Shown here one piece after another: positions 1 through 14,535 of a stretch of DNA of 64,000 nucleotides; positions within the stretch are counted from its first letter, which is position 1, and each line of letters opens with the position of its first letter. Origin of the DNA: an uncultured Nitrospiraceae bacterium (GTDB lineage Bacteria > Nitrospirota > Nitrospiria > Nitrospirales > Nitrospiraceae). The notes beneath the pieces are model-generated. The model was not told the DNA's origin. It saw only the letters and a program-made list of their open reading frames with translations, and ran no database searches. The stretch lies in assembly GCA_963730935.1 (NCBI GenBank), contig CAVSTP010000003.1:704001-768000 (forward strand), written 5' to 3'. The position numbers were made by a program, and so were the translations under genes.

Positions 1-853
<853 letters not shown>

Positions 854-937
854 TCTACTTTGCTCCTGATAGACATGGTCTTCATGCAATCACACAGCGG
901 TCAATGCTCGTGAAGACCTGCTTCAGTGTAGAATGTT

Positions 938-1053
<116 letters not shown>

Positions 1054-1060
1054 TTACAAC

Positions 1061-1095
1061 AAAGAGCCTGCTAGAGCAATCTAGCAGGCTCTTTT
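1061..1095 (+). terminator. Rho-independent terminator of rRNA operon
   Basis: AAAGAGCCTGCTAG-AGCAAT-CTAGCAGGCTCTTT followed by a T-rich tract. Confidence 0.9.
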
Positions 1096-1123
1096 ATTTT
1101 GAAGTCAAAGAGCTCAGAGAAGA

Positions 1124-1222
1124 GGCGGGTCCTGCCGTTGACCAGCCCAGCCGGCTTCGCACCCCGCCCGGTGTAGGGACCCCGCTGCAGGCGGCTGGGC
1201 GCCCAGGCCAACGTCACCCGCC
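1124..1222. other. ~100-nt GC-rich imperfect hairpin element
   Basis: GGCGGGT/ACCCGCC, CGTTG/CAACG and GCCCAGCCG/CGGCTGGGC nested stems. Confidence 0.5.
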
Positions 1223-1325
1223 AGTTGATCGGATGTGACCCGTTAACTAAGGAAAGACGAGGAGCGCTGCAATCGCTCATGGATCGCAGCGCTCTCGGAG
1301 GCATTTTGAAGCAGCGTGCTTAGGC

Positions 1326-1354
1326 TTGACTCGCTTTTGATCAAAACGTAGCCT
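1326..1354 (+). promoter_or_regulatory. sigma70-like promoter with palindromic spacer; likely leaderless start at ATG 1362
   Basis: TTGACT-17 bp-TAGCCT; TTTTGATCAAAA palindrome at 1335-1346; no obvious SD before 1362. Confidence 0.5.
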
Positions 1355-1361
1355 CTCGACC

Positions 1362-1766
1362 ATGGTGACTCCAAGCCTCTACGAGCATCTGCATGACTCT
1401 ATTGTCATCAACTACGCTAGACCATTCACGGCCAATGACGGTTACAGCAAGATCGATGGTCGATACGAGAGGTTCAACGAACAAGAGTTTCAAGAACTTC
1501 ATGATAGGTTGCTCCGACTTCGACACAGGGTGCTTGCTCATACCGCCGCGGAGGCATCAAAAGTTCTAGAGGAGTTTGAGGAGCATGCAAATTCCAAATG
1601 TTATACGGTGAAAGTGAACCGCGCGAGGATGCCGCGAGAAGAATTTCACAAGGTGCGGCGACTTTGTCTCGATCTACTGGTCCGACTCGAAGGGGAAGCT
1701 TTTGGGAGGATAGAAGCATTGGAGCGAATTACGGGCATGACGATGCCAAAATCTTGGGAACTCTAG
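1362..1766 (+). CDS. Hypothetical protein, HEPN-like (Rx4-6H) putative RNase
   Basis: 134-aa helical ORF with INYARPF...LRHRVLAH. Confidence 0.6.
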   Translation: MVTPSLYEHLHDSIVINYARPFTANDGYSKIDGRYERFNEQEFQELHDRLLRLRHRVLAHTAAEASKVLEEFEEHANSKCYTVKVNRARMPREEFHKVRRLCLDLLVRLEGEAFGRIEALERITGMTMPKSWEL

Positions 1767-1798
1767 CCGATGAACCCAGGCTATCCTTCTTGCAATCC

Positions 1799-2239
1799 AT
1801 GAACGAACCACGCCTTGCGGCCAATGAAATCCAGGAGCAGGTACTTAATAGACTTGAAAAGTACAAGAGCTTCAATGTCCTCGAACAATTCGCGATGTTT
1901 ATGGGAATGGCGCAAGTTCTAGAAGTTGGCTTAAAGAACCTGCTGAGTCGTCGGTACAAGTATGACCTTGAGAAAATAGAAACCTGGACACTAGGGAAAA
2001 CCACAAGGGAGCTGAAAGAGTGCGGTCTGCGAGCTGACTTTATTGCACTTCTAGAGAGCGTCGTTCAGTATCGCAACCACATTGCTCACGAGTTGTTAGT
2101 GAATGACGCAATGCTGAAATGTATCTTGGGCGGTGAGAGCGGAAGGCTTGAACTGAAACAGCTGGAGAAAGGAATCTACGAGCTGGAGCAAATTATCTTC
2201 CTGCACGACTGGTGCGAAGAGCATAACGCGTGGGGCTAG
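1799..2239 (+). CDS. Hypothetical protein, HEPN-like (RNHIAH) putative RNase
   Basis: Start taken at MNEPRL; YRNHIAHE motif; lower GC than flanks. Confidence 0.65.
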   Translation: MNEPRLAANEIQEQVLNRLEKYKSFNVLEQFAMFMGMAQVLEVGLKNLLSRRYKYDLEKIETWTLGKTTRELKECGLRADFIALLESVVQYRNHIAHELLVNDAMLKCILGGESGRLELKQLEKGIYELEQIIFLHDWCEEHNAWG

Positions 2240-2245
2240 CATCGC

Positions 2246-2317
2246 GCGCAACATGGCGCTCCACTCGATAGTTCAACCGCTACGCAATTTTTCCCCAGCT
2301 GAGCTTTGACGTTGTTT
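2246..2317 (+). mobile_element. attC-like integron recombination site (degenerate, solitary)
   Basis: GCGCAAC-ATGGC-GCTCCAC...GCTGAGC-TTTGAC-GTT box architecture directly after a stop codon. Confidence 0.55.
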
Positions 2318-2375
2318 CAGATAAAGGGGATAGGCTGATTTCTTACAGCCATCCGATGCAGCAGAGTCGCTCGGT

Positions 2376-2548
2376 CCTGTGGCTCATCGCTCGTTCTGCA
2401 GGCGCACGGCAATTCGCGAATCCGCTGAATCCCAGCCGGCATCGAACGGATAGCCGGCGCTGTCGATGTCGATGACCTACGGGGCGTGATCCGAGGGTTT
2501 AGGTTTTCCCTTCCGCGCCTCGCGATCGATTTTCGCGCAGGCAACGCG
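2376..2548 (-). pseudogene. xth 3'-end remnant R1
   Basis: Ungapped match (~82% by eye) to 9663-9835; translates RVACAKIDREARKGKPKPSDHAP*VIDIDSAGYPFDAGWDSADSRIA. Confidence 0.93.
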
Positions 2549-2795
2549 TCTTCTCGCTTTGTGAAGTTGCGCGCCGATCTTTCGGCAGCTGCCGATAGGA
2601 CGGCGTAGAACGCTTCGTCACGTTAGTCTTTCCTCATCATCAGACGCCAGGTTCTTCAGCAACAATCCCTTTGCTGTCCATCACTTGCGTCCTCAATGTC
2701 CGATCCTCTGTCGCTTGGAACGGTCTATGCGCGAGAGGTATTGGTACAAACGATCTGAAGAGACAGAAGCTGGCAATAGTGCAAGGAGGAACTAT

Positions 2796-3782
2796 ATGAA
2801 AGCCGCAATCGTCCCCGCCGTGAGCAGTTCTTGGCAGATCAAAGATGTTCCTCAGCCTGAGCCGGGACCAAGCCAGGTGCTCGTGAAGATGCACGCAAGC
2901 GGCATCTGCTACACCGATGTGCACCAAACGCTCGGCCACATTCCAGGACCATTTCCTCGCATCCTTGGACATGAGCCAGTGGGCGAGATCGTCGCCATCG
3001 CTCCTGATGTGACCGCTCGCAAGGTCGGCGAGCGGGTCGGCTCGGCATGGGTTCAGTCCACCTGCGGACGCTGCGAGTGGTGTCAGCGCGGCCGCAAGAT
3101 GTTCTGCCCCTATATGAAGGGCACGGGCGGCGAGGCGCAAGGCGGGCACGCCGAGTACATGCTGATGAACGCCGACGCGACGTACCTGATTCCTGACAAG
3201 GTGACCTACGAGCAGGCCGCACCGATCTTTTGCGCCGGGTATACCGTGTATAGCGGGCTTCGCTGGGCCGATCCGCAACCCCACGAGCGCGTGGCCGTAC
3301 TGGGAATCGGCGGGCTTGGGCACCTGGCCGTGCAATACGCGAAAGCTGCGGGCTTCGAGACCATCGCGATCTCGCATTCCCCCGATAAGGACAAGATGAT
3401 TCGCGAGCTGGGCGCGGATGAAGTGGTCCGCAACGGAAAGAGCCTTGCCGATGCGGGCGGCGCCGACATCATCCTCAGTACCTCCAACTCGACCAAATCC
3501 ATGATGGACAGCATTCAGGGTCTGCGCCCGGACGGCCGGTTCATCGTGATGGGCGCGGACGTGGAACCGCTTTCGCTCTCGTTGGCCGAGTTACTCTTCA
3601 AGCGCATCAAAATCATCGGCAGCCAGCAAAATGGCCCCGAATATCTGTACGAAGCCCTGGACTACGTCGCCAAAGGAAAGGTCAAATCGATCATTGAAAC
3701 TTACCCGTTGGCCGAAGCTGTGAAGGCCTACGAGCGCGTGGCGGAGGGCAAGACCCGCTTCCGCGCTGTGCTCACAATGTAA
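2796..3782 (+). CDS. Zinc-dependent alcohol dehydrogenase (AdhP-like, MDR family)
   Basis: GHE motif, CGRCEWCQRGRKMFC Zn site, GIGGLG; SD AGGAGG. Confidence 0.93.
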   Translation: MKAAIVPAVSSSWQIKDVPQPEPGPSQVLVKMHASGICYTDVHQTLGHIPGPFPRILGHEPVGEIVAIAPDVTARKVGERVGSAWVQSTCGRCEWCQRGRKMFCPYMKGTGGEAQGGHAEYMLMNADATYLIPDKVTYEQAAPIFCAGYTVYSGLRWADPQPHERVAVLGIGGLGHLAVQYAKAAGFETIAISHSPDKDKMIRELGADEVVRNGKSLADAGGADIILSTSNSTKSMMDSIQGLRPDGRFIVMGADVEPLSLSLAELLFKRIKIIGSQQNGPEYLYEALDYVAKGKVKSIIETYPLAEAVKAYERVAEGKTRFRAVLTM

Positions 3783-3824
3783 TGGGGCTGTGCCCGACCG
3801 CTAATTCATTGCATGAGGTGTTCT

Positions 3825-4682
3825 ATGACTACACACACGAAACTCATTCTGGTGACCGGCGCGACAGGACAGCAAGGGGGCGCAGTAGCCAGGGTTTTGC
3901 TCAACAAGGGGCAGAAAGTTCGGGTCATGACGAGACGCCCGGAAAAAGCCGCCGCACTTGCGAAGGCGGGCGCAGAGGTGGTCAAAGGAGACCTGACGAA
4001 CCAGGCCGACCTTCAGGCGGCATTGCGTGGGATATATGGAGTGTTTGCCATGTCCACTCCGTTTGAGGCCGGGATGGAGGCGGAGGTACGTCAGGGCGTC
4101 TTGCTGGCCGATGCGGCCAAACAAGCCGGGGTCGCGCACTATATATATACGTCTGTGAACGGCGCCAATCGTCATACGGGAATCCCGCACTTTGACAGCA
4201 AGTGGCAGGTCGAGCAACACATCGCGAAGATCGGCTTGCCCACGACCATCCTGCGCCCTCCCTTTTTTATGGACAACCTTACGACCGTTGGAAAGCCGTC
4301 TCCTGAGGGCGTGCTCACCATGCCGATGCGACCGGATAGAAAGCTGGGCATGGTCGCAGTCAGGGACATTGGCCAGTTCGGGGCGGCCGCATTCAGTCGT
4401 CCGAAGGATTTTCTCGGGAACGCTATCGACCTGGGGGGCGATGAATTGACCATCCCGGAGGTGGCCGCGCTATTAACTAAGGCCATGGGGAGATCCATCC
4501 GGTTCCAAGAGTTTCCACTCGACCAGGCGGAAGCCGCGATGGGCCATGATCTCGCCACGATGTTTCGCTGGTTTAACGACGTTGGATATACAATCGATGT
4601 ACCAGGCCTGACGAAGAAGTTCGGGATTCCTCTGACCTCTTTTACAGAATGGATGAAGACGGTCGAATGGCCGAAGGGCTGA
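3825..4682 (+). CDS. NmrA/HSCARG family NAD(P)-binding protein
   Basis: ILVTGATGQQGG, PHFDSK. Confidence 0.92.
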   Translation: MTTHTKLILVTGATGQQGGAVARVLLNKGQKVRVMTRRPEKAAALAKAGAEVVKGDLTNQADLQAALRGIYGVFAMSTPFEAGMEAEVRQGVLLADAAKQAGVAHYIYTSVNGANRHTGIPHFDSKWQVEQHIAKIGLPTTILRPPFFMDNLTTVGKPSPEGVLTMPMRPDRKLGMVAVRDIGQFGAAAFSRPKDFLGNAIDLGGDELTIPEVAALLTKAMGRSIRFQEFPLDQAEAAMGHDLATMFRWFNDVGYTIDVPGLTKKFGIPLTSFTEWMKTVEWPKG

Positions 4683-4751
4683 CCGCTAAAATTGCCGATG
4701 TACTGAACGCGCATATCGCAAGCCGTACTCAATGCCAAGAGGAGACAAGCC

Positions 4752-5114
4752 ATGGCCTTCAGCATTTCGACCTTGCTGACCCGCAACCTCCATGACGTTT
4801 TTGGTGAAAACGATCCCGTGCGTCGGCGCGCGGCCATCGACGAGATCTTCACTGAAGATTGCATATTCTATGAGCCCAGGGGTGTCTACCATGGGCGCGA
4901 CGAGATCGATCGCATCGCTGGCGCGATCAAGGCTACTCACCCTGACTTTCGATATCAGCCACTTGCCGAGCCCGAGGAATTGGGCAATGTCGGGCGAGTC
5001 CGGTGGGTATCGGGTCGCCCTGGTGAGGTTCCAGCTTACGCCGGGACTGATTTCATAATCGCCAGGGATGGCCGCATTGCTGGCGTGTATCTCTTTTTCG
5101 ATAAGGTGCCCTGA
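4752..5114 (+). CDS. SnoaL/NTF2-like protein
   Basis: NLHDVFGENDPVRRRAAI...GTDFIIARDGRI; SD GAGGAG. Confidence 0.88.
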   Translation: MAFSISTLLTRNLHDVFGENDPVRRRAAIDEIFTEDCIFYEPRGVYHGRDEIDRIAGAIKATHPDFRYQPLAEPEELGNVGRVRWVSGRPGEVPAYAGTDFIIARDGRIAGVYLFFDKVP

Positions 5115-5208
5115 GCAGTGAACTCAATTGCGGGCCCACGTCTGACAGGCCATCACACATGGTGGAGCCTACGGTCTGAGGGTGCCATTAGAAAACAAGG
5201 AGAATGCC

Positions 5209-5832
5209 ATGAGCAATCAATCCCATCCCTACCTGCCTCTCACTCCACAAAACGCAGCGCTTGTCCTCGTCGATCATCAGGTCGGTCTCATGACCGGCGT
5301 CCGTGACTATTCAACCGGCGAACTGAAACACAACGTCGTGGCCCTGGCCAAGGCTGCGAAAGCCCTGAAACTGCCCATTATCGTCACCACGACGGCGCGC
5401 GACAGCATGTGGGGTCCGACCTTCCCCGAGCTTGTGGAAGCGCTGCCAGGTATCGAGATCATTGATCGCTCTTCCGTCAACGCCTTCGACGACGCACGCG
5501 TCGCTCGTGCGATCGAGGCGACCGGCCGCAAGAAGCTCATCTTTGCCGGAATCTCACTCGAAGTCTGCGCGGCGTTTCCCGCCATCACAGCGGTGGGTAA
5601 GGGGTTCGACGCCTATGTGGCAGTCGATGCCTCGGGGACCTTCAGCGAGACGAAGCGGCAAGCTGGGCTCTTGCGCATGCTTCAGGCAGGGGTCGTTCTC
5701 TCGGACTACGCGACCTTGATGGTGGAAATCCTCAAGGACAACGCGCGACCGGAGGCCGGTGAGGTCTACGGCGCTATGGATATGGCTTGGGCCAAGCTTG
5801 TAGGTCAAATCGCCCAGGCTTACGGAAAGTAA
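5209..5832 (+). CDS. Isochorismatase-family hydrolase (YcaC-like)
   Basis: LVDHQVGL, GISLEVCAAFPA. Confidence 0.9.
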   Translation: MSNQSHPYLPLTPQNAALVLVDHQVGLMTGVRDYSTGELKHNVVALAKAAKALKLPIIVTTTARDSMWGPTFPELVEALPGIEIIDRSSVNAFDDARVARAIEATGRKKLIFAGISLEVCAAFPAITAVGKGFDAYVAVDASGTFSETKRQAGLLRMLQAGVVLSDYATLMVEILKDNARPEAGEVYGAMDMAWAKLVGQIAQAYGK

Positions 5833-5870
5833 GAGGCAAACTGCCTTTTGAAGGGCATCCGGTTGGGCGC

Positions 5871-6017
5871 GACCCTGTGGGCTCATCGCTATTTCCGGAG
5901 GCGCCCCGCGATTCGCGACTCCGCCGAAGGCCAGCCGGCGTCGAAGGGATGGCCGGGGTTGTCGATGTTGATGACCAGCGTGCGTGACTTTTCGTGAAGG
6001 CCAGTAGACATCGCGGT
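5871..6017 (-). pseudogene. xth 3'-end remnant R2 (internal deletion)
   Basis: 5871-5987 matches 9660-9776 and encodes LVINIDNPGHPFDAGWPSAESRIAGRLRK*; AGACATCGCGGT at 6006-6017 resembles 9826-9837. Confidence 0.92.
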
Positions 6018-6093
6018 CGACGGCGGTGACTTCGTGAGGCGGGCCCGCTAATATTCCATTGCGCTGTCCGTAATCTAAGCCAAAGGAGATCGG

Positions 6094-6636
6094 ATGAACA
6101 CCAGAATCGGGACGTTCTCTTGGGCCGCGTTGTTGCTCGCTCTGTGGATGGTTCCCGCATGGGTAGAGGCACAAACGCCGCGTCAGCAGGCGGAGAAAGA
6201 GCTGCAACGAAAGGCACCGAACGCCGGAGTGGAGGCCTGTTCTCTGATTACGCGCGCCGACGTGAAGGCTGCCACCGGCAGGGATCCGTTTGTCGACCCC
6301 GAGTCCGCCGGCCAGGGCGGCTGGATGTGCAACGTCGGCACTGGCGAATTGAAGGTGTATTCGGGCCCGAAATCGTCGGAGACATGGGAGTCCACACTGC
6401 AGAGTTTCAAGATGGACAAGGAGCCGCGGACGCCGGCTCCAGGCTTCGGCGAGCAATCCTACTTCCTTTACCCAAAGCCGGCGAAGAAGTCTCAAGGCAA
6501 CGTCGCGGTCTTGGTTGCGAAGTCTGGCAACCACACGCTCGTTCTGTCACTCGACGCACCCGATGACAAGCCGGCCGAGTCAATGCGCCCAGCGCTCGAA
6601 TCGCTGATGAAAACGATCCTCGCCCGGCTGCCATGA
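6094..6636 (+). CDS. Secreted protein (DUF3558-like ACSL-T motif)
   Basis: Signal peptide; EACSLITRADVKAATG; SD AAGGAG; resembles 11886-12419. Confidence 0.8.
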   Translation: MNTRIGTFSWAALLLALWMVPAWVEAQTPRQQAEKELQRKAPNAGVEACSLITRADVKAATGRDPFVDPESAGQGGWMCNVGTGELKVYSGPKSSETWESTLQSFKMDKEPRTPAPGFGEQSYFLYPKPAKKSQGNVAVLVAKSGNHTLVLSLDAPDDKPAESMRPALESLMKTILARLP

Positions 6637-6643
6637 GAAGGTA

Positions 6644-6759
6644 CCAGCCGGCGTCGAACGGATGGCGGGCTGTCGATGTCGATGACCAGCGGTTCGTGAT
6701 CGGAGGGCAACGGTTTTCCCTTCCTCGCCTCACGATCGATCTCGGCACAGACATCGCGG
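6644..6759 (-). pseudogene. xth 3'-end remnant R3
   Basis: ~94% match by eye to 9719-9829 with a 2-nt deletion. Confidence 0.94.
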
Positions 6760-6900
6760 GGTTGATTTGCTGTTCGCCGACCCTAAGGCCGGCTATGGAG
6801 CCTTGACAGAGACTGGCAAACGGGATAATGAAACGCTCCCGTCTGGGCTCCCTGTGCTGATCAGGTCTTCGTACTACGGTGGCCAGCAGCAGACCTTTCA

Positions 6901-8187
6901 ATGCTCCTTATGCCTAAGGATCAAGTCCAGCCTCCCGTCATCGTCGTTCCAGGGATCACAGGAACGGGTCTGGAGGACTATTATCCAATCCCACCGGAGG
7001 AAGTGTGGTCCGCCGTTCTCAAGAAGAATTACGAACGTATCTCGATGCATCCGGATAATCCTCGCTATGAGGCGCTTGAGCCGGCGCGGGTGCAGCCACA
7101 TGGCATCTTTGGAATCATCTACGAAGATCTGGTCGAGGCCCTACGTCACGACTTGATGATAAGACGTACGGAGCCAACCCCAGTCTTTCCGTTCAGCTAT
7201 GACTGGCGACAGGACTGCACGCAGTCCGCTGACTTGCTCGCTGGTTTTATTGAAGAGGTCATCGAACGGACCGTACTCCTTCCTCATTACCGAGAAGCAA
7301 GTAAATCGCTCTGTGTCGACCTCGTGGCCCACTCGATGGGTGGCCTTATCGTAGCTGACTACCTGACACGTTACGGCAAAGAAAAAAAGGTTCGTCGTGT
7401 CGTATCGATTGCTTCACCTTTCGAGGGTGCAATCGACGCCATAGAAAAAGTTTCAACAGGCATGGGTACGTTGACCGGCTCATATCCACGAGATAGAGAA
7501 CGCGAAGCGTCCCGTACCATTCCGGCTATCTACCAGCTGCTACCGTCATATAGTGGTGCCATCGAAGACGAGCCTGGACAGCCGAATGACATCTTTGACG
7601 TTCAGACTTGGCGCGTATGGCAGCGTTCAGTCTTGATGACTCTGCGCGAGTACATCCGCCTGCATAAGGCCGAGATAGACCCCGAAAAGCTTCTGGGACA
7701 GTATCTAGAGACAGCATGGAAACATCGGCAACGGATCAGAAAACTAAATTTGGCGCAAGTTCTGTCGGAGGGCGTGAAGGGTTGGATGGCGATAGCGGGG
7801 CTAGGAGAGCCGACCCGAATAAAAGTCGAAACAAAAAAGGATGTCGGAGGACGGTGGTTTGCATTTGCGCCGCCGGTCGAAGAGTGGAAGAATGATCACA
7901 GCAGTATGAAAACCGGGGATGGGACCGTTCCATTTGCAGGGGCGATACCACGCTTTCTTAAAATTGAGAATCTAGTCTGTATCAGCCGAGCCGAGTTCGG
8001 CATATTCGAACTTGGTGATCGGGCACTCGCCCTGGGGGCCGGGCTTCATGCGGCTCTCCCTACAGTCAACCTCGTTCAACGGCTGACGATTAAATTCCTG
8101 CGCCGCGAATATTCCGGCGATATCGAGGCGAGGCCCGCTCCCGGAGTGACCACGCCGGAATGGCCAATGGACATTCCGGTAAAATAA
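6901..8187 (+). CDS. Alpha/beta-hydrolase lipase/acyltransferase (LCAT-like)
   Basis: VVPGITG, FSYDWR, AHSMGG nucleophile elbow, GDGTVP. Confidence 0.85.
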   Translation: MLLMPKDQVQPPVIVVPGITGTGLEDYYPIPPEEVWSAVLKKNYERISMHPDNPRYEALEPARVQPHGIFGIIYEDLVEALRHDLMIRRTEPTPVFPFSYDWRQDCTQSADLLAGFIEEVIERTVLLPHYREASKSLCVDLVAHSMGGLIVADYLTRYGKEKKVRRVVSIASPFEGAIDAIEKVSTGMGTLTGSYPRDREREASRTIPAIYQLLPSYSGAIEDEPGQPNDIFDVQTWRVWQRSVLMTLREYIRLHKAEIDPEKLLGQYLETAWKHRQRIRKLNLAQVLSEGVKGWMAIAGLGEPTRIKVETKKDVGGRWFAFAPPVEEWKNDHSSMKTGDGTVPFAGAIPRFLKIENLVCISRAEFGIFELGDRALALGAGLHAALPTVNLVQRLTIKFLRREYSGDIEARPAPGVTTPEWPMDIPVK

Positions 8188-8250
8188 GTCCCAACCGGAT
8201 GTTCATGGCGTCAGTTCAGAAACAAGGCCGAAGCACGAAAGAGGTCAGGC

Positions 8251-8345
8251 CTATTGAGGCTTTGACACGCGCCCTGCAATTCGCGATCGGCCCAGACAAC
8301 GCACTGTTTTAACGGCGCTGTCACGAGCAGGTGATCGATCCGCAT
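8251..8345 (-). pseudogene. xth 3'-end remnant R4 (large internal deletion)
   Basis: MRIDHLLVTAPLKQCVVWA (cf. xth MRIDHLLVTTTLQHRVVWA) joined to SRIAGRVSKPQ*. Confidence 0.85.
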
Positions 8346-8364
8346 CATTGCGTGTTTTAGCCGT

Positions 8365-9567
8365 TTACCTGGGCGAATCCATTCTTCTTCGGACGAAGGG
8401 TGAATCCCAACGACTCCACAGAATTCCAAGAGCATTAAGCCATGGCGTCATGATCATCGTGGCCGCGACGACAATGATGCCAGTGGAGAATTGAACCTGC
8501 GTTTCTGTGCCGAGGGCCAATAACTCGCCAAGTGCCACGAAAGCAAATTCGCTGCATTGAGCGAGGAGAAAGGACATCCGAGCCGCCGCACCGTGTTGCA
8601 TGCTCATCGCTCGGGCGGCCAGATATAGCACGACAATCTTGAACGCGATGATCGCAAGGACGTGCAGAAGAATTATTGCGACATGTCCGCGCAGTACGCT
8701 GAGATCAACCGTCAGTCCTACGGAGACAAAAAACAGTCCCAGCAAGAGATTCTTGAGTGGCAGAACTTCCTCTTCCAATCGATGTCTGTACTCCGAGCTG
8801 CCCAGCGACACACCCGCGATGAACGCTCCCATGGCCATCGAAAGACCCGTGGAAGAGGCGAGCCATGCGCCGCCGAACAGGGCAATAAAAATGATTGCCG
8901 TAAAGGTTTCGCCGAAGTTTGGGGCCACCGCGAGGCGCAGGAGTCGGGGCCAGACGTACCGGCCAACGACGAAGATGATGATCATGGCCCCTGCGGCGTA
9001 CAGGACATCCCCCCATACGAAGCTCTCTGCTGATCCAGTCCCGGCAAACACCGGCAGCAAGGCGAGGATCGGTACGACGGTCAAGTCCTGAAATAGAAGC
9101 AGGGCTAAAGTCGCCTGTCCATATTCTTGCTCCAGTTCGCCTTTTCCTTTCAGGAGCTGGAGCACAAGCGCTGTAGATGAGTTTGACGCGACTAGTCCGA
9201 AAAGAAGCGCAAGAGACCAGGAAGGCGCGAAGAAGCGCCAATAAAACATCATCGCCAGACCGGTTCCAATCACTTGCGCGGCTCCAAGGCCGAAGGCATA
9301 TCGTCGCAGCGACCAGATTTTCCGAGGATCGAGCTCGAGTCCGATCACAAAGAGAAAGAAGACCACGCCCAGTTGCGAAATGTCGGTCAGGCGTCCAATC
9401 TGGCTGGTATTGAGGACATGTGATGATCCCAAAATGATTCCGGAGAGTAACAGCCCGAGTTCCGGACCGATCCCAAGCCGCCGAGCGAGGGGAATCATCA
9501 CGGCACTGATGGTGAGCAGCAACGTGACGGCCACTACTATATCCGGCAATGAGATATAGGGGTTCAA
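8365..9567 (-). CDS. CPA2/KefB-like cation:proton antiporter, membrane domain only
   Basis: GVVFFLFVIGLE, LLFQDL, LGLFFVSVG, QCSEFAFV; no C-terminal KTN domain; TTG start with SD GGAGG. Confidence 0.85.
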   Translation of the reverse strand: MNPYISLPDIVVAVTLLLTISAVMIPLARRLGIGPELGLLLSGIILGSSHVLNTSQIGRLTDISQLGVVFFLFVIGLELDPRKIWSLRRYAFGLGAAQVIGTGLAMMFYWRFFAPSWSLALLFGLVASNSSTALVLQLLKGKGELEQEYGQATLALLLFQDLTVVPILALLPVFAGTGSAESFVWGDVLYAAGAMIIIFVVGRYVWPRLLRLAVAPNFGETFTAIIFIALFGGAWLASSTGLSMAMGAFIAGVSLGSSEYRHRLEEEVLPLKNLLLGLFFVSVGLTVDLSVLRGHVAIILLHVLAIIAFKIVVLYLAARAMSMQHGAAARMSFLLAQCSEFAFVALGELLALGTETQVQFSTGIIVVAATMIMTPWLNALGILWSRWDSPFVRRRMDSPR

Positions 9568-9676
9568 GCTGAGCCTCCCAATTCGACCACGCGTGTCATC
9601 GCGGATTTCGTATTGCTATGCCGACCGATCGTCAGGACAAGTGCACCTTGGACGCCTCAGACCCTGTGGCTCATCG

Positions 9677-10552
9677 CTATTTCCGCTGGCGCCCCGCAAT
9701 GCGCGACTCGGCCGAAGCCCAGCCGGCGTCGAACGGATGCCCGGGGCTGTCGATGTCGATGACCAGCGGTGCGTGATCCGAGGGCAACGGTTTTCCCTTC
9801 CTCGCCTCGCGATCGATCTCGGCCCAGACCACACGGTGTTGTAAGGTGGTGGTCACCAATAAGTGGTCGATGCGCATGCCGATGTTTTTGTGAAAATTGC
9901 CTGCGCGATAATCCCACCAGGTGTAACGCCCCGGTTCCGGGTGATGCAATCGGAATGCATCGACGAATCCCGCGCTCGAAAGCCCTGCAAAAGCTTGCCG
10001 CTCGCGCTCGGAAACGTGTGTCCCGCCTTGACAAGCACTGGGGTCCCACACATCGGCATCTTCGGGCGCCACATTGAAATCACCGCCGATGACGGCCGGT
10101 GTATCCGAAGTGACGGCCCGACTGATCCAGCGAGCCAGCCTGTCGAACCACACGAGCTTGGCTTCATAAAACGGTGAATCCACGAGCCGGCCGTTCGGCG
10201 CGTACACGCAGATGATGCGCACGCCGCCGCATTCGGCAGCGAGCATCCTGGCCTCAGCCATCGGTTCATCGTCACCGGTTTCAGACGTACGGGCCGGCCG
10301 TAATGGCTCTCCAAAATTTGTGATGACGCTGTCGATGCCGCACCGACTCGCGATCGCAACGCCGTTCCATCGACCCTCACCGTGGTGCACCAGCTCGTAT
10401 CCGGCCTGCTTGAAGGGTTCGACAGGCGCATCCGCGTCCCCCAGCTTCGTTTCCTGCATCAGAAGCACGTCCGGCTTCGCCCGATCCAGCCACCACATGA
10501 CCTTCTCAAGGCGAGCCTTCAGCGAGTTGACATTCCAAGTGGCAATCCGCAT
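9677..10552 (-). CDS. xth: Exodeoxyribonuclease III
   Basis: MRIATWNVNS, QETK, GDFNVAP, YTWWDYR, RIDH, SDHAP. Confidence 0.96.
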   Translation of the reverse strand: MRIATWNVNSLKARLEKVMWWLDRAKPDVLLMQETKLGDADAPVEPFKQAGYELVHHGEGRWNGVAIASRCGIDSVITNFGEPLRPARTSETGDDEPMAEARMLAAECGGVRIICVYAPNGRLVDSPFYEAKLVWFDRLARWISRAVTSDTPAVIGGDFNVAPEDADVWDPSACQGGTHVSERERQAFAGLSSAGFVDAFRLHHPEPGRYTWWDYRAGNFHKNIGMRIDHLLVTTTLQHRVVWAEIDREARKGKPLPSDHAPLVIDIDSPGHPFDAGWASAESRIAGRQRK

Positions 10553-10594
10553 GGCTAATGATTCTTCCATTCGGGCCGCGGCGTATGGCGGCAG

Positions 10595-11314
10595 TCACTT
10601 AGCATCATGGAAGATGACGCCGAGCGTAAAGCGTGAACCAGAGTGAATCGTGCTCACGCCGTGCCGCATGTTGACCCGGTAATAGCCCCGGCTTCCTTGG
10701 ACGGGACGGTGCCGCGTCGCAAAGATCACGATTTCTCCCTGCTGAGGGGCCAGGACTTCACCGCGTGATTGTGCCCGCGGTCGCTGTTCCACGAGCAGAA
10801 ATTCACCACCGACAAAATCGCGGTCAGGGCGACTGAGAAAGGCGGTGAGCTGCAGCGGGAAAGCGACGGCTCCATAGATATCCTGATGAAGGCAGTTATA
10901 ATCCCCCGCACCGTAACGAAGTAACAACGGTGTGGGCTTCGTCTGTCCGTTCCGACGACAGACGGCGAGCAGTTTCTCGTGACTCGGCGGAAACGTATCC
11001 CTCTGTCCCAATGCCTTTGTCCAGGCGTTGGCGATCACCGCAAGACGAGGATAGATGTGTTCGCGCAGCGTTTGGACCAGCGACGGCAAGGGATAGGTGA
11101 AGTATTTGTACTCCCCCTCGCCAAACCGAAAGCGCTTCATGTCGATCCGGCTTCGGAACAATTGGTCCTTGCCGTACAGGGCGACAAGAGCCTCGCACTC
11201 GTCGGCCGTCAGCAACGGGTCGGTTTTGGCATAACCCCGCTCCCATAACGATGCTTCAATGGCCTTCCAGTCTAGCTGGACCAGTCGGTCTTGGATGTTG
11301 ACCACTTCAGCCAT
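10595..11314 (-). CDS. 2OG-Fe(II) oxygenase (DUF2086-like)
   Basis: LHQDIYG, GGEFLLVEQRPRAQS, RHGVS, GVIFHDA. Confidence 0.9.
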   Translation of the reverse strand: MAEVVNIQDRLVQLDWKAIEASLWERGYAKTDPLLTADECEALVALYGKDQLFRSRIDMKRFRFGEGEYKYFTYPLPSLVQTLREHIYPRLAVIANAWTKALGQRDTFPPSHEKLLAVCRRNGQTKPTPLLLRYGAGDYNCLHQDIYGAVAFPLQLTAFLSRPDRDFVGGEFLLVEQRPRAQSRGEVLAPQQGEIVIFATRHRPVQGSRGYYRVNMRHGVSTIHSGSRFTLGVIFHDAK

Positions 11315-11353
11315 TTCGTCCTAAGTAATGGATATAATTCGACACCATCCCTA

Positions 11354-11379
11354 TGTCGATTTTGGCCATCGAGAACGAC
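11354..11379 (+). promoter_or_regulatory. ECF42-type promoter
   Basis: TGTCGA-16 bp-CGAC upstream of a YCII/DGPF gene. Confidence 0.65.
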
Positions 11380-11426
11380 TATCTGTCAAGAACATCGTTT
11401 CACAGTCAAATTGGAGGGTCGAAGCC

Positions 11427-11789
11427 ATGAAATATCTGCTCCTGTGTTGCCACGAAGAGAAGAAATGGGACTCCATGTCCAAAAGCGACTGCGACGCCGT
11501 GATGGAAGAGACCATGGCCTATGTCGAGGCGCTGAAGAAGAGTGGTCAGCTTCTTGCGGTAGAGCAACTCGACCCCATAAAGACGGCCATAAGCGTGAGA
11601 ATCCGGAGCGGGAAGTTGTCCGTGACCGACGGTCCCTATGCTGAAACGAAAGAGCAGCTCGGTGGCTTTTTCCTGATCAGCGCCCGAGATCTGAACGAGG
11701 CGATCCAGGTGGCCTCGAAGTTTCCGTCGGTGCGCTTCGGAACCATGGAGGTGCGGCCGGTCAGGGAAATTCCCGGCAGCGGCCACTAG
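11427..11789 (+). CDS. YCII/DGPF-domain protein
   Basis: MKYLLL...VTDGPYAETKEQLGGFFLI...MEVRPV. Confidence 0.92.
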   Translation: MKYLLLCCHEEKKWDSMSKSDCDAVMEETMAYVEALKKSGQLLAVEQLDPIKTAISVRIRSGKLSVTDGPYAETKEQLGGFFLISARDLNEAIQVASKFPSVRFGTMEVRPVREIPGSGH

Positions 11790-11885
11790 TCGGCGCGGCG
11801 TTGATGCTATGAATCACGTTTGGCTGTTGCTATACTGCCGGACTCCGATTTCCCGCCAGTCGTCGGTTTCAAACCGGAGGTGCAG

Positions 11886-12419
11886 ATGCTGCCGTTCAGT
11901 CTTGCCATGATCCTGATCGCGTTGCTCATATCGCCTGCCGACGCGAAAGAAAAATCGGCTTGCTCATTGCTGACCTCGAGCGATATTGAGGCTGTCGTTG
12001 GCGGGAAAGTGAGCGCGAGCCAGCCGATTCATTTTGATGACATTCCGAGTGGCAAGAAGACCGTGAAAGCGTACGGCTGCCTGTGGGGCGTCTCTACTAT
12101 AGGGCAAGTCTCCATCAGTTGGTTTGAAGGACCCCTCACCGATGACGAGATCGCCCAGTTGATCAAGATGACCAAGAACAATCCGGGAACCGAGGACCTT
12201 AAAAAGGCCAACTATAAAGAAACAGCAAAAGATTTTCCCCAAGCCTCGTGCTCAAGCTATACACCCCCGGCCGGTGCCAAAGATGGCATGCCCATGTCCA
12301 CCTGTGCCGGTGGAGCAAAGGGGCATGGTCTTACGCTCACGTTCATGAGCCCCAGCAAGACACTCACGATTGATCAGACGAAGGCCCTCTTGGACAAGGC
12401 CGCTTCGCACGTCCACTGA
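11886..12419 (+). CDS. Secreted protein (DUF3558-like)
   Basis: Signal peptide; SACSLLTSSDIEAVVG; SD GGAGG. Confidence 0.78.
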   Translation: MLPFSLAMILIALLISPADAKEKSACSLLTSSDIEAVVGGKVSASQPIHFDDIPSGKKTVKAYGCLWGVSTIGQVSISWFEGPLTDDEIAQLIKMTKNNPGTEDLKKANYKETAKDFPQASCSSYTPPAGAKDGMPMSTCAGGAKGHGLTLTFMSPSKTLTIDQTKALLDKAASHVH

Positions 12420-12513
12420 GGCTGCACCTGGTCAATGCTATCCTGCCGAGTTTGGCGAGAGCGCTCGTCGATCGATTCCAACCACCGCTTGAACACTTAG
12501 CCTTTGAGGGCGG

Positions 12514-12539
12514 TGTCGATTTCTGGAATCTCGTTCGAC
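12514..12539 (+). promoter_or_regulatory. Second ECF42-type promoter
   Basis: TGTCGA-16 bp-CGAC, same spacing as 11354. Confidence 0.6.
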
Positions 12540-12601
12540 TACAAGATACGAGGTTACGTCGTAATCGTGCTGGGCATCAACTAGAAAAAGGAGAAATAGC
12601 C

Positions 12602-13048
12602 GTGGGAACTAATACCATTCGACTCCATCGCGTGCTTCGTGCAACACCGGAACGGATCTATCGGGCATTTCTCGATGCAGATGCCATGGTGAAGTGGCTG
12701 CCGCCAAATGGATTTACGGGCAAGGTGCATCACATGGATGCCAAAGTCGGCGGCACTTTTAAGATGTCGTTTACGAATTTTACGACAGGCAAGAGCCACT
12801 CCTTTGGCGGTAAGTATCTTGAACTCGTGCCCCATGAGCGCCTGCGGTATACGGACAACTTCGACGACCCGAACCTGCCTGGAGAAATTCACGTGACGGT
12901 CACCTTGAAGAAAGTCTCTTGCGGAACGGAAGTTCATATCGTGCAAGAAGGCGTGCCTGATGTGATTCCGGCAGAGGCCTGCTACCTCGGCTGGCAAGAA
13001 TCGCTCATTCTTCTTGGGAAACTCGTCGAAGCGGAGATCCCAGACTAA
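12602..13048 (+). CDS. SRPBCC/AHSA1-like protein
   Basis: TIRLHRVLRATPERIYRAFLD...CYLGWQESL; GTG start after AGGAGA. Confidence 0.9.
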   Translation: MGTNTIRLHRVLRATPERIYRAFLDADAMVKWLPPNGFTGKVHHMDAKVGGTFKMSFTNFTTGKSHSFGGKYLELVPHERLRYTDNFDDPNLPGEIHVTVTLKKVSCGTEVHIVQEGVPDVIPAEACYLGWQESLILLGKLVEAEIPD

Positions 13049-13117
13049 TATCGCCGGCTGAGGAATAGAAAGGGGGTCGCAAGTCTCTCTTGCTGACGGG
13101 GTAGTAAGGAGGGCTGC

Positions 13118-13762
13118 ATGAGCAAGGTGAAAGTCGCGGCGTTTACGGTGTCGCTCGATGGATTTGGTGCGGGGCCCCGACAGGATTTGCAGAATCCGCT
13201 AGGAGTTCGTGGGGAAGAACTGCATTCCTGGTTTGTAGACACGGACGTCTTTAAGAAAATGAACGATCAAGGCGAAGGGTCGCATGGCATCGACAATGAT
13301 TTTGCCGCGCAGTCAATGGACAATATGGGCGCCTGGATTTTGGGGCGGAATATGTTCGGGCCGGTGCGCGGTCCCTGGAAAGACGAGTCCTGGAAGGGCT
13401 GGTGGGGGGATAATCCGCCGTACCACACGCCGGTATTTGTGCTCACGCATCACTCACGAGCGCCCCTGACGATGGAAGGCGGCACGACCTTTTACTTTGT
13501 GACCGATGGCATCGAGTCGGCCTTAAAGAAAGCGAAAGCGGCGGCCAAAGGCAAAGACGTTCGGATTGGTGGCGGCGTTGCCACGATTCGTCAGTACCTG
13601 ATCGCCGGCCAGATCGATGAGATCCACCTAGCCATTTCGCCGATTTTGTTGGGAGAAGGGGAGCATCTCTTTGCCGGCCTCAATCTCCACGCTCTCGGGT
13701 TCACATCCATCAAAACCGTCGCCAGTGAAAAGGCAACGCATGTTCTGATGAAAAAAGGATGA
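13118..13762 (+). CDS. Dihydrofolate reductase/RibD C-terminal family protein
   Basis: SLDGFGAGP, ILGRNMF, IGGG, PILLGEG. Confidence 0.9.
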   Translation: MSKVKVAAFTVSLDGFGAGPRQDLQNPLGVRGEELHSWFVDTDVFKKMNDQGEGSHGIDNDFAAQSMDNMGAWILGRNMFGPVRGPWKDESWKGWWGDNPPYHTPVFVLTHHSRAPLTMEGGTTFYFVTDGIESALKKAKAAAKGKDVRIGGGVATIRQYLIAGQIDEIHLAISPILLGEGEHLFAGLNLHALGFTSIKTVASEKATHVLMKKG

Positions 13763-13842
13763 ACGGGTCGCCTCCGCTGCATAAGTCCTTCCGAAGAGAC
13801 CGATGCCGGCCTGCGATCGGCTCATGACGACCTTTTCTCGTT

Positions 13843-14535
13843 TTAACGGGTAATAAGCCCATCGGTGATGCCGTAGGCGAGGGCATAGCAAATGAAGATT
13901 CCTATGCCGCCGGCGATACCTGCCAGGACGGAGTCCCTCCACCCGCCGTTGGTCACGTGTCTTGCCATCAGCGCAAAAATAATCGCGATGCCGAATTCGC
14001 CAAGGATGATGTAGTAGGGCGTGTTGGACAGCATCCGGCAATTGCTATATACCCACCAGTTGATTCGGCGTGCCATTTCTTCATAATAAGGGATGTTGAT
14101 CGCACCCAAGACACCAATCGCGACCAGTCCCCACCTGTCGAACCGATTCCAAAGCCACAGACCGATATAGCCGAACTGCACAGCGACGACTTCCCAGGCA
14201 AAAGGCATCCAGAGGGGAGAGCGCCAAATCATGGGTCCGCCGCCGATGGCATAGTCCAACGTCTTGGTGTAATCCACCAGCCACGCATCGGCAATCAACT
14301 CAGCAAATCCTACGGTAAGGCCGAAGACAATGAATCGCGCCAGGACCCAGTCACGGCGCAAGATGATGAAACCGGCCAGCAGGGAATTATCGATGATATT
14401 AAGCGCGACTCCGGTTTTCCAATCCGACCACGGTGCGAGGCTCAGCAATGCGACGGCGACAACGTTGATGGCGATAGTAGCCAAGATGATTTTGAGACGG
14501 GCATCAGCAAGCGAGCTTTCAGCGGTCAGTTCCAT
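13843..14535 (-). CDS. Hypothetical integral membrane protein
   Basis: 230-aa multi-TM ORF. Confidence 0.8.
   Translation of the reverse strand: MELTAESSLADARLKIILATIAINVVAVALLSLAPWSDWKTGVALNIIDNSLLAGFIILRRDWVLARFIVFGLTVGFAELIADAWLVDYTKTLDYAIGGGPMIWRSPLWMPFAWEVVAVQFGYIGLWLWNRFDRWGLVAIGVLGAINIPYYEEMARRINWWVYSNCRMLSNTPYYIILGEFGIAIIFALMARHVTNGGWRDSVLAGIAGGIGIFICYALAYGITDGLITR

Follow-up and report, generated by a model that had tools for sequence, protein, structure and literature searches.

Stacked relics of xth gene ends beside the rRNA operon of a Nitrospira genome: probable additive insertion anchored in xth homology

Introduction

How does a DNA repair gene come to be followed by a row of fragments of its own 3' end, with unrelated genes in between? 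The question is raised by a genome of Nitrospira (G000; 4.05 Mb in 6 contigs), a genus of nitrite oxidisers and complete ammonia oxidisers. In the window, by which we mean the whole 64,000-nt stretch of DNA that was analysed, four such fragments lie between the exodeoxyribonuclease III gene xth and the rRNA genes. The original prediction for this locus held that the fragments are not decayed local duplicates of the present gene but ends of functional alleles, and that the C-terminal part of xth, including its catalytic SDH motif, has been repeatedly replaced by incoming alleles. A survey of the Nitrospira literature at the level of titles and abstracts found no account of an xth/rRNA locus with such relics.

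Results

The interval and its borders

The gene at the head of the row is intact. It occupies 9677..10570 on the reverse strand as a 297-aa ORF that matches PF03372 and, with 248.4 bits against TIGR00633 (cut-off 99) and 223.1 bits against TIGR00195 (cut-off 182.6), is an ExoIII (xth) equivalog by the curated cut-offs; the conserved start is probably the methionine of MRIATW at 10552. The ExoIII profile stops at residue 268 of 291, and the last ~23 residues, which lie beyond it, form a lineage-specific tail. The resident protein ends RQRK*, its TAG sitting two codons ahead of the TGA of related 'RLRKQR*' alleles. At 9677-9685 this resident TAG stands against a CAG in related 'type L' alleles and the downstream TGA is still in frame; the same TAG occurs in one of the fragments, R2. 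The window xth is a second ExoIII gene of G000, with a 41% identical paralogue on contig C2. The type of that paralogue is present in nearly all genomes of the family, and the window type in only ~40 of 201 (tallies over these 201 family genomes include G053, G099 and G121, which are flagged as unpublished and on which no conclusion here rests). Outside the phylum, the window-type xth is 65-78% identical to genes of Acidobacteriota, Rokubacteria, Binatia, Methylomirabilota and others.

Immediately upstream of xth, a gene for a 2OG-Fe(II) oxygenase (10595..11314, reverse strand; PF09859) forms a conserved near border that is colinear with the genomes G047, G013, G017 and G001. The far border, likewise conserved, is made up of rRNA genes on the forward strand, identified with Rfam: 23S with its 3' part (1-855), and 5S (938-1054). 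The rRNA genes are thus convergent with xth, and the 8.6 kb between them hold the four xth-tail fragments, all on the xth strand. Starting at xth, the order is cargo A, R4, cargo B, R3, cargo C, R2, cargo D, R1 and then 5S/23S, where R1 to R4 are the fragments and cargo is the DNA between them. The same xth-to-5S arrangement is found in L043, L045, G006, L048, G047 and G001, with an interval that ranges from ~1.25 kb to ~11.5 kb.

Just past the 5S gene, at 1120-1222, lies a GC-rich element of ~100 nt that can fold into a long hairpin and is probably a REP- or MITE-like repeat. It has 19 more matches in G000 (27-109 nt, 71-93% identity, both strands, three contigs), and similar matches of 80-95% identity occur in many of the 99 family genomes, out of 201, that matched the query. 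No Rfam family was found for it at E<=1, and its fold is no better than that of shuffled sequences (z = -1.0).

The four fragments can be delimited by comparing the 261-nt xth tail with the whole 4.05-Mb genome. Five places match at E<=0.02, namely the gene and the four fragments, all of them within 2376-9900 and on the reverse strand; the remaining 15 matches listed span 15-26 nt at E>=0.9. Because the significant tail matches all fall in this one part of the window and on one strand, the relics are not chance matches. R1, the outermost relic (2376-2554), covers xth nt 730-908 at 83% identity to the resident gene; it has an in-frame TAG and, like the resident gene, a 'type L' ending. R2 (5867-5987; xth nt 795-911) is 90% identical to the resident gene and has a 1-nt deletion, and R3 (6643-6764; xth nt 730-852) is 91% identical with a 2-nt deletion. 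R3 breaks off at nt 852, directly against the 3' flank of cargo C, and R3 and R2 overlap by 58 nt in xth coordinates (795-852) on either side of that cargo. R4, the relic nearest to xth (8251-8345), consists of a 5' part at 8290-8345 (xth nt 694-749) and a 3' part at 8251-8286 that reads SRIAGRVSKPQ*. An internal deletion of ~112 nt (xth nt ~750-864), flanked by two copies of GCCGA, separates the two parts, and after it R4 resumes with SRIAGR, again by silent changes. Homology of R4 upstream of nt 694, back to ~655, is doubtful.

The cargo next to xth, cargo A, encodes a CPA2/Kef-type cation:proton antiporter of 400 aa (8365..9567, reverse strand; PF00999 at 1.2e-54, TIGR00932), from which the xth stop codon is separated by a spacer of ~100 nt (9568-9676). 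G001 has an 83% identical copy at an unrelated site; the homology spans only window 8382-9576, and no fragment of xth is close to that copy. The joint between cargo A and R4 falls at about the stop codon of the antiporter and may involve microhomology of the GGTGA/TGGGA type, a placement that is not base-exact since the sole comparator is this 83% identical copy. Cargo B, which is convergent with xth, encodes an LCAT-like alpha/beta hydrolase of 428 aa (6901..8187, forward strand; PF02450 at 5e-12). Cargo D comprises four genes on the forward strand (2685..5832), assigned by Pfam to a zinc alcohol dehydrogenase (2685-3782), an NmrA-like protein (3813-4682), a SnoaL-like protein (4752-5114) and an isochorismatase-like protein (5182-5832). 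None of the window cargo genes stood behind xth in the 120 loci first collected; later family-wide DNA searches matched G047 and G213.

Cargo C (6094..6636, forward strand) is a predicted lipoprotein-like ORF of 180 aa with no Pfam or NCBIfam match, and window 6068-6642 is 85% identical to a G012 gene that lies between YCII and AHSA1, upstream of the G012 xth. Judged by eye, cargo C resembles the 199-aa ORF at 11820-12419, which is likewise placed between YCII and AHSA1. Both ORFs have a signal-peptide-like start followed by a C-S-L-[IL]-T motif, and the two look like paralogues. At the YCII/AHSA1 position G012 has the cargo-C type and G006 the 199-aa type, so that the array may preserve a variant of the gene that has been supplanted in its home position, 5 kb distant.

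Silent differences between relics and working gene

The case for functional ancestry was first made on one end of R4. Read on the reverse strand, 8319-8345 pairs with 9851-9877 of xth (gene nt 694-720, codons 232-240), and 7 of the 27 bases differ, in five codons. All seven differences are synonymous, as had been claimed, both versions translating to MRIDHLLVT. Simulations that put seven random substitutions (ts/tv 2) on the resident sequence gave no trial out of 20,000 in which every residue was kept, with 4.4 changed codons expected on average. These 27 nt are the best-looking part of R4 and were picked post hoc; whole relics were therefore tested too, by simulations of the same design. Across nt 694-747, R4 has 16 differences, which fall on the three codon positions as 6/0/10 and alter 6 codons silently and 5 with a change of residue (P=0.0014). 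Its residue changes (TAPLKQ versus the resident TTTLQH) are states present in working alleles elsewhere. R1 differs from the resident gene at 27 positions, distributed 6/6/15 (P=0.0019), and the ten differences of R2 show a weak synonymous bias (P=0.04). Both also keep the protein motifs that had been ascribed to them: R1 retains YPFDAGW and SRIA in the presence of its in-frame stop, and R2 retains HPFDAGW and SRIAGR behind its deletion. The eight differences of R3 show no synonymous bias (P=0.15-0.17) and are compatible with neutral decay of a local copy.

For comparison, the median pN/pS of working alleles in this region is 0.17 (153 pairs from 18 Nitrospira genomes), and the best-preserved relics in other genomes have values of 0.14-0.27 against their resident allele. 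The table behind these ratios takes in 15-nt pads and frameshifted stretches, which makes the values upper bounds, and we prefer the trimmed simulation tests. The view that the copies are not decayed local duplicates thus holds for R4 and R1, which are relics of working ends; it is weakly borne out for R2, but R3 gives it no footing.

This outcome leaves room for an account in which the xth tail was duplicated locally in tandem and the duplicates decayed, their silent look arising from later allele replacement or conversion of the working gene. Tandem duplication is common in bacteria, the two relics closest to the resident allele are R3 and R2 (91% and 90%), and R3 is the one without synonymous bias (P=0.15). 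Yet each relic is followed by different DNA and not by repeated cargo, and the comparison with other genomes also weighs against this account.

A relative with another ending

In G047, a partial assembly of the same genus that is ~8% diverged from G000 in xth, the working gene is followed directly by the hydrolase gene of cargo B and an R3-like relic. The match of G047 to window 6644-8287 spans 1651 nt at 90.7% identity, and the R3 relic in G047 is orthologous to that of the window. Where R4 ends SRIAGRVSKPQ* before the hydrolase, the G047 xth ends SRIAGRVSKPR* before the same hydrolase; the 3' part of R4 with its downstream DNA matches G047 at 61 of 67 positions, and all other alleles align over the first 7-46 nt only. 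Because this ending is attached to a full-length xth in a relative, the 3' part of R4 together with cargo B represents a displaced or alternative functional xth end. The description of R4 as the end of a functional allele, already favoured by its silent differences, thereby gains a counterpart in a relative.

Relative to G047, G000 has as extras cargo A, which is missing at the G047 locus, with its 100-nt spacer, and in addition the RQRK* ending of its resident gene and the R4 5' part. The two xth genes are colinear to nt ~882 (codon ~294) and unrelated beyond it, with 37 of 52 positions different; their divergence is 7.9% over nt 19-749 and 10.5% over nt 750-882 (Fisher P=0.31). An insertion in G000 and an excision in G047 would give an identical picture, and either would be recombination between xth-tail repeats. 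The G047 xth (L149, G047:C3:286000-300000, about 7850) has a 1-nt insertion near gene nt 309 and is split over two frames (aa 6-105 and 102-296), which points to either a frameshift in a pseudogene or an assembly error.

The two parts of R4 have different affinities. The 56 nt of its 5' part match G075 at 52 positions and G109 at 51, both from other genera, as against 45 in G047 and 40 in the resident gene, so that alleles from outside the genus are nearer to this part than any from within it. With 4 versus 11 mismatches over 56 nt, the comparison is suggestive of a chimera whose cargo side would be foreign and whose far side local. Neither the working ending that R4 shares with G047 nor the foreign affinity of its 5' part sits well with local duplication, which we hold to be the least probable of the accounts weighed here.

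As for the extent of replacement, the data from working alleles do not bear out what had been proposed. Exchange of the last ~55 codons with the SDH motif finds no support in G000: G000 and G047 diverge only after codon ~294. Nor did the expected breakpoint between the first ~240 and the last ~55 codons appear: in pairwise tests of 5' versus 3' divergence, 0 of 153 allele pairs passed the Bonferroni threshold of 3.3e-4 (smallest P=0.003), and maximum-likelihood trees built from 19 alleles, one for the 5' part (675 nt) and one for the 3' part (192 nt), have a star-like shape with support under 70 on most branches. There is a hint of mosaicism elsewhere from max-chi-square scans, in which G000 versus L043 gives a signal at nt ~449 and not at codon ~240. 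What demonstrably varies with the neighbour is the last 3-4 codons of xth and the DNA downstream, and each ending type has its own conserved post-stop sequence, in working genes and relics alike. When the two haplotypes at nt 709-727 are set against the two main ending types, all four combinations occur among the 19 alleles (4, 3, 3 and 4), and the exchange of xth ends within the genus is therefore real.

Distribution among the Nitrospiraceae

Stacks of relics like that of the window recur in the family. A blastn search of a first set of 19 genomes with the 19 allele tails gave 29 relics in 10 genomes; nine further genomes held 9 relics in 7; and G213, from another genus, has two relics, one of which is followed by a convergent isochorismatase gene, as is R2 in the window. 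Altogether, 40 relics were found in 18 of the 29 Nitrospiraceae genomes examined, a sample of the ~40 with an xth of this type, and the 11 genomes without a relic include several with less than 1.5 kb of flank. Of the relics in the first set, 13 are spread over 33 kb in G009, whereas N. moscoviensis (L047) has a single one, ~0.85 kb behind xth. Position and orientation could be judged for the 39 relics on the same contig as xth, and every one of them is downstream of the gene and on its strand; only 3' relics were seen, with no 5' relics upstream of xth. This is the layout by which C-terminal displacement is defined: orphan 3' fragments that retain homology to the conserved part of a complete gene stand behind it in the same orientation. 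In the other phyla that carry xth of this type, a second tail fragment was found in 0 of 68 loci at E<0.1.

The relics begin at scattered positions, from xth nt 412 to nt 865. A loose grouping of about 11 among the 40 is seen at nt 724-751, close behind the hypervariable codons 238-244; this may be an alignment effect or a mark of shared descent, a preferred site being possible as well.

The G009 array has sequence in common with working loci in other genomes. The DNA found directly behind the working xth in L043 (92%), L049 (80%), L042 (78%) and G001/G004 (84-85%) recurs 14-25 kb deep in the G009 array, and in the cases of L043, L049 and L042 the matching G009 DNA sits just behind a relic. 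G004 and G009 have a unit in common with the same junction, at xth nt 844/845. That the DNA behind G009 relics stands behind working genes in other species is a further point against local duplication.

One could also imagine that the relics were never local ends. Foreign fragments starting within a donor xth would have been anchored by the rRNA operon, which is 95-97% identical, and joined illegitimately at the xth side, new units gathering at the rRNA end. In line with such anchoring, conservation is much higher at the 23S/5S border than in xth, and G000 and G047 differ also at the rRNA-proximal end of their interval. It gives no reason, however, for xth-tail ends in 40 of 40 cases, nor for their co-orientation. 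Moreover, the unit beside xth by which G000 and G047 differ (cargo A and the 5' part of R4) is xth-proximal, and the ending of the working gene changes with its neighbour. We regard an rRNA anchor as very unlikely.

Two further observations concern partial and unrelated arrays. The complete genome of G071 (L151, G071:C1:1828000-1842000) has only an xth tail fragment at 7109-7408 (aa 198-297, 81%), with no full-length xth of this type within the 14 kb around it, and may be an array whose working gene was lost. A self-comparison of G000 also brought up several other arrays in which direct repeats are dispersed, and the four looked at are non-coding repeat families rather than gene ends: ~25 copies of a ~110-nt non-coding unit in one orientation, 0.3-13 kb apart over 50 kb, at G000:C4:800899-851717, and three smaller arrays of different non-coding repeats at C4:1761086-1795282, C4:1382024-1410297 and C4:775946-793359.

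Mobility genes and target sites

Tandem direct repeats of a gene 3' end, all in one orientation, are the classic scar of integrative elements. It could thus be that elements with a site-specific integrase repeatedly hit an attB in the xth tail, each bringing a replacement tail in the manner of phage-like elements at tRNA genes and certain protein genes, and that the integrases and most of the element DNA were later deleted; the loose cluster of ~11 relic starts at nt 724-751 would suit such a target. In Pfam scans, however, no recombinase or transposase was found among the 17 window ORFs, and the 41 ORFs of the G009 array include two IS transposases only (rve and IS110-type) and no tyrosine or serine recombinase, serine recombinases being covered through these two scans. 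The arrays of G000, G009, G047, G062 and G173 contain no tyrosine recombinase either (0/73 PF00589 matches). Relic starts that vary from nt 412 to 865 are unlike the fixed core of an integrase, and cargo units that are single ordinary chromosomal genes are unlike integrative elements. Cargo A, in particular, is joined at its own stop codon, and around its nearest relative, which has an unrelated position in the chromosome, no fragment of xth is seen. Repeated integration of this kind thus has a low probability in our estimate.

Other target-based systems were considered and set aside. An integron was rejected as no integrase was found and the repeats are co-oriented xth coding fragments of variable extent, not attC-like palindromes. 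ARAGORN finds no tRNA in the window that could have served as a target, and Rfam gives only the 23S and 5S rRNA in 1-14000.

Discussion

An important outcome of this analysis is that the relics can be read as a series of displaced gene ends. We put the probability at roughly 65% that they arose by additive insertion anchored in xth homology, in which no integrase took part and former gene ends were pushed outward. Incoming DNA consisting of an xth tail and new genes would recombine with the resident xth by ordinary homologous recombination; the cargo would thereby be added beside xth, and the former tail with its neighbours would shift toward the rRNA operon. The four fragments at 2376-8345 would then be relics of earlier or foreign working xth ends, left by such events. 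Within this scheme, we infer the direction of each event, the route by which DNA entered and the way in which the far-side junction was formed.

In the latest event, that of cargo A, a ready-made unit of xth end, cargo, junction and xth fragment might have entered by a single crossover of a putative circular intermediate or by two crossovers within the xth homology. If the mechanism is of this kind, import of such a unit seems the likelier origin of cargo A, and a fresh illegitimate join (homology-facilitated illegitimate recombination) a somewhat less probable one. The latter would be expected to leave a wholly local relic, and the foreign look of the 5' part of R4 argues against it. A foreign 5' part with a local 3' part would fit a reciprocal crossover, a pattern that a wholly local relic would not predict. 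This make-up of R4 and the 58-nt overlap of R3 and R2 both fit insertion-duplication (single-crossover, Campbell-type), and the overlap around cargo C is a hint that insertion-duplication via a short internal xth fragment left a footprint there. With xth-like repeats on both sides, a cargo unit could then pass from genome to genome, or drop out, through plain homologous recombination. The absence of 5' relics is explained only by assuming selection for an intact, co-transcribed xth. G000 has genes of the ComEC and DprA families, but these do not count as evidence for DNA uptake, since 10-11 of 14 control genomes have them as well.

Additive insertion could also be part of something larger. As a tentative and rather unlikely extension, the xth tail might be the landing pad of a gene-capture platform of the Nitrospiraceae that runs on housekeeping recombination alone: a 'cargo plus xth fragment' would loop out by recombination between tail and relic and re-enter the xth tail of another cell. 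Were this true, an integron-like cassette array would be growing beside the single rRNA operon in the absence of an integrase.

The proposed process could matter beyond this locus. If part of the flank is duplicated at each step, earlier neighbours and gene ends stay recorded in order along the chromosome, and with such a record the mechanism, the succession of events and the donors can be tested directly on sequence data. There could also be a practical use. Many foreign insertions appear to have been tolerated by Nitrospira at the xth tail beside the rRNA operon, which makes it a candidate neutral landing site for constructs that enter by homologous recombination; we know of no established genetic tools for Nitrospira.

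How does the locus compare with known systems? Islands at tRNA genes and the element e14 in icd of E. coli are integrative elements that restore the 3' end of the gene they enter. Like the xth array, they leave a displaced gene end with silent differences behind inserted DNA. They differ in needing an integrase and a fixed core site, whereas the xth arrays have scattered relic starts and no integrase among the ORFs scanned.

Closer in setting are the hotspots of gene gain described by Oliveira et al. (2017, PMC5635113). According to the parts of that study used here, hotspots without integrases but with recombining core-gene flanks are common, 27% of hotspots lack both integrases and transposases, and half lack recognisable mobile elements. 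The xth locus resembles them in its variable interval between a conserved gene and the rRNA operon, in the lack of mobility genes and in its high turnover among relatives. The difference lies in the far side: the model set out in those parts of the study is a scarless double crossover in both flanks, and here the flank would be partly duplicated at each step. The entry of DNA into hotspots free of mobility genes is deduced only from recombination signals in the flanks, and it is in this respect that stacked relics could be informative.

The effector-immunity arrays of the V. cholerae T6SS offer a nearer parallel in mechanism. For these, homology-facilitated illegitimate recombination, followed by spread through ordinary homologous recombination, has been proposed in the passages of Kirchberger et al. 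(2017, PMC5361080) relevant here. Serial insertions there push older units and effector 3' ends downstream, and a conserved upstream stretch serves as the anchor, much as we propose for xth. Two differences stand out. Retention of immunity genes is clearly beneficial in those arrays, on the same passages, and no such benefit is evident here; in addition, the chimeric make-up suggested for R4 would fit a reciprocal crossover better than a fresh illegitimate join.

The closest likeness is to the 'C-terminal displacement' of Rhs loci. In the sections of Jackson et al. (2009, PMC2935791) that bear on this process, orphan 3' fragments lie behind a full-length gene in its own orientation, each with a piece of the conserved part and an alternative end, and homologous recombination via a circular intermediate, with no integrase, is proposed. 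The variable part in those sections is a toxin tip with its immunity gene, for which selection for diversity is obvious, whereas the gene at hand encodes the repair nuclease ExoIII. What is displaced also differs, a conserved tail in our case, and the cargo is miscellaneous. In place of the toxin tips and immunity genes of Rhs, CdiA and T6SS arrays, we find an antiporter, an LCAT-like hydrolase, oxidoreductases, an isochorismatase and a lipoprotein-like ORF, and only the last 3-4 codons of xth vary. If our reading is right, C-terminal displacement is not confined to the polymorphic toxin loci for which it has been described so far but extends to an ordinary repair gene, and at xth it would need no selection for toxin diversity.
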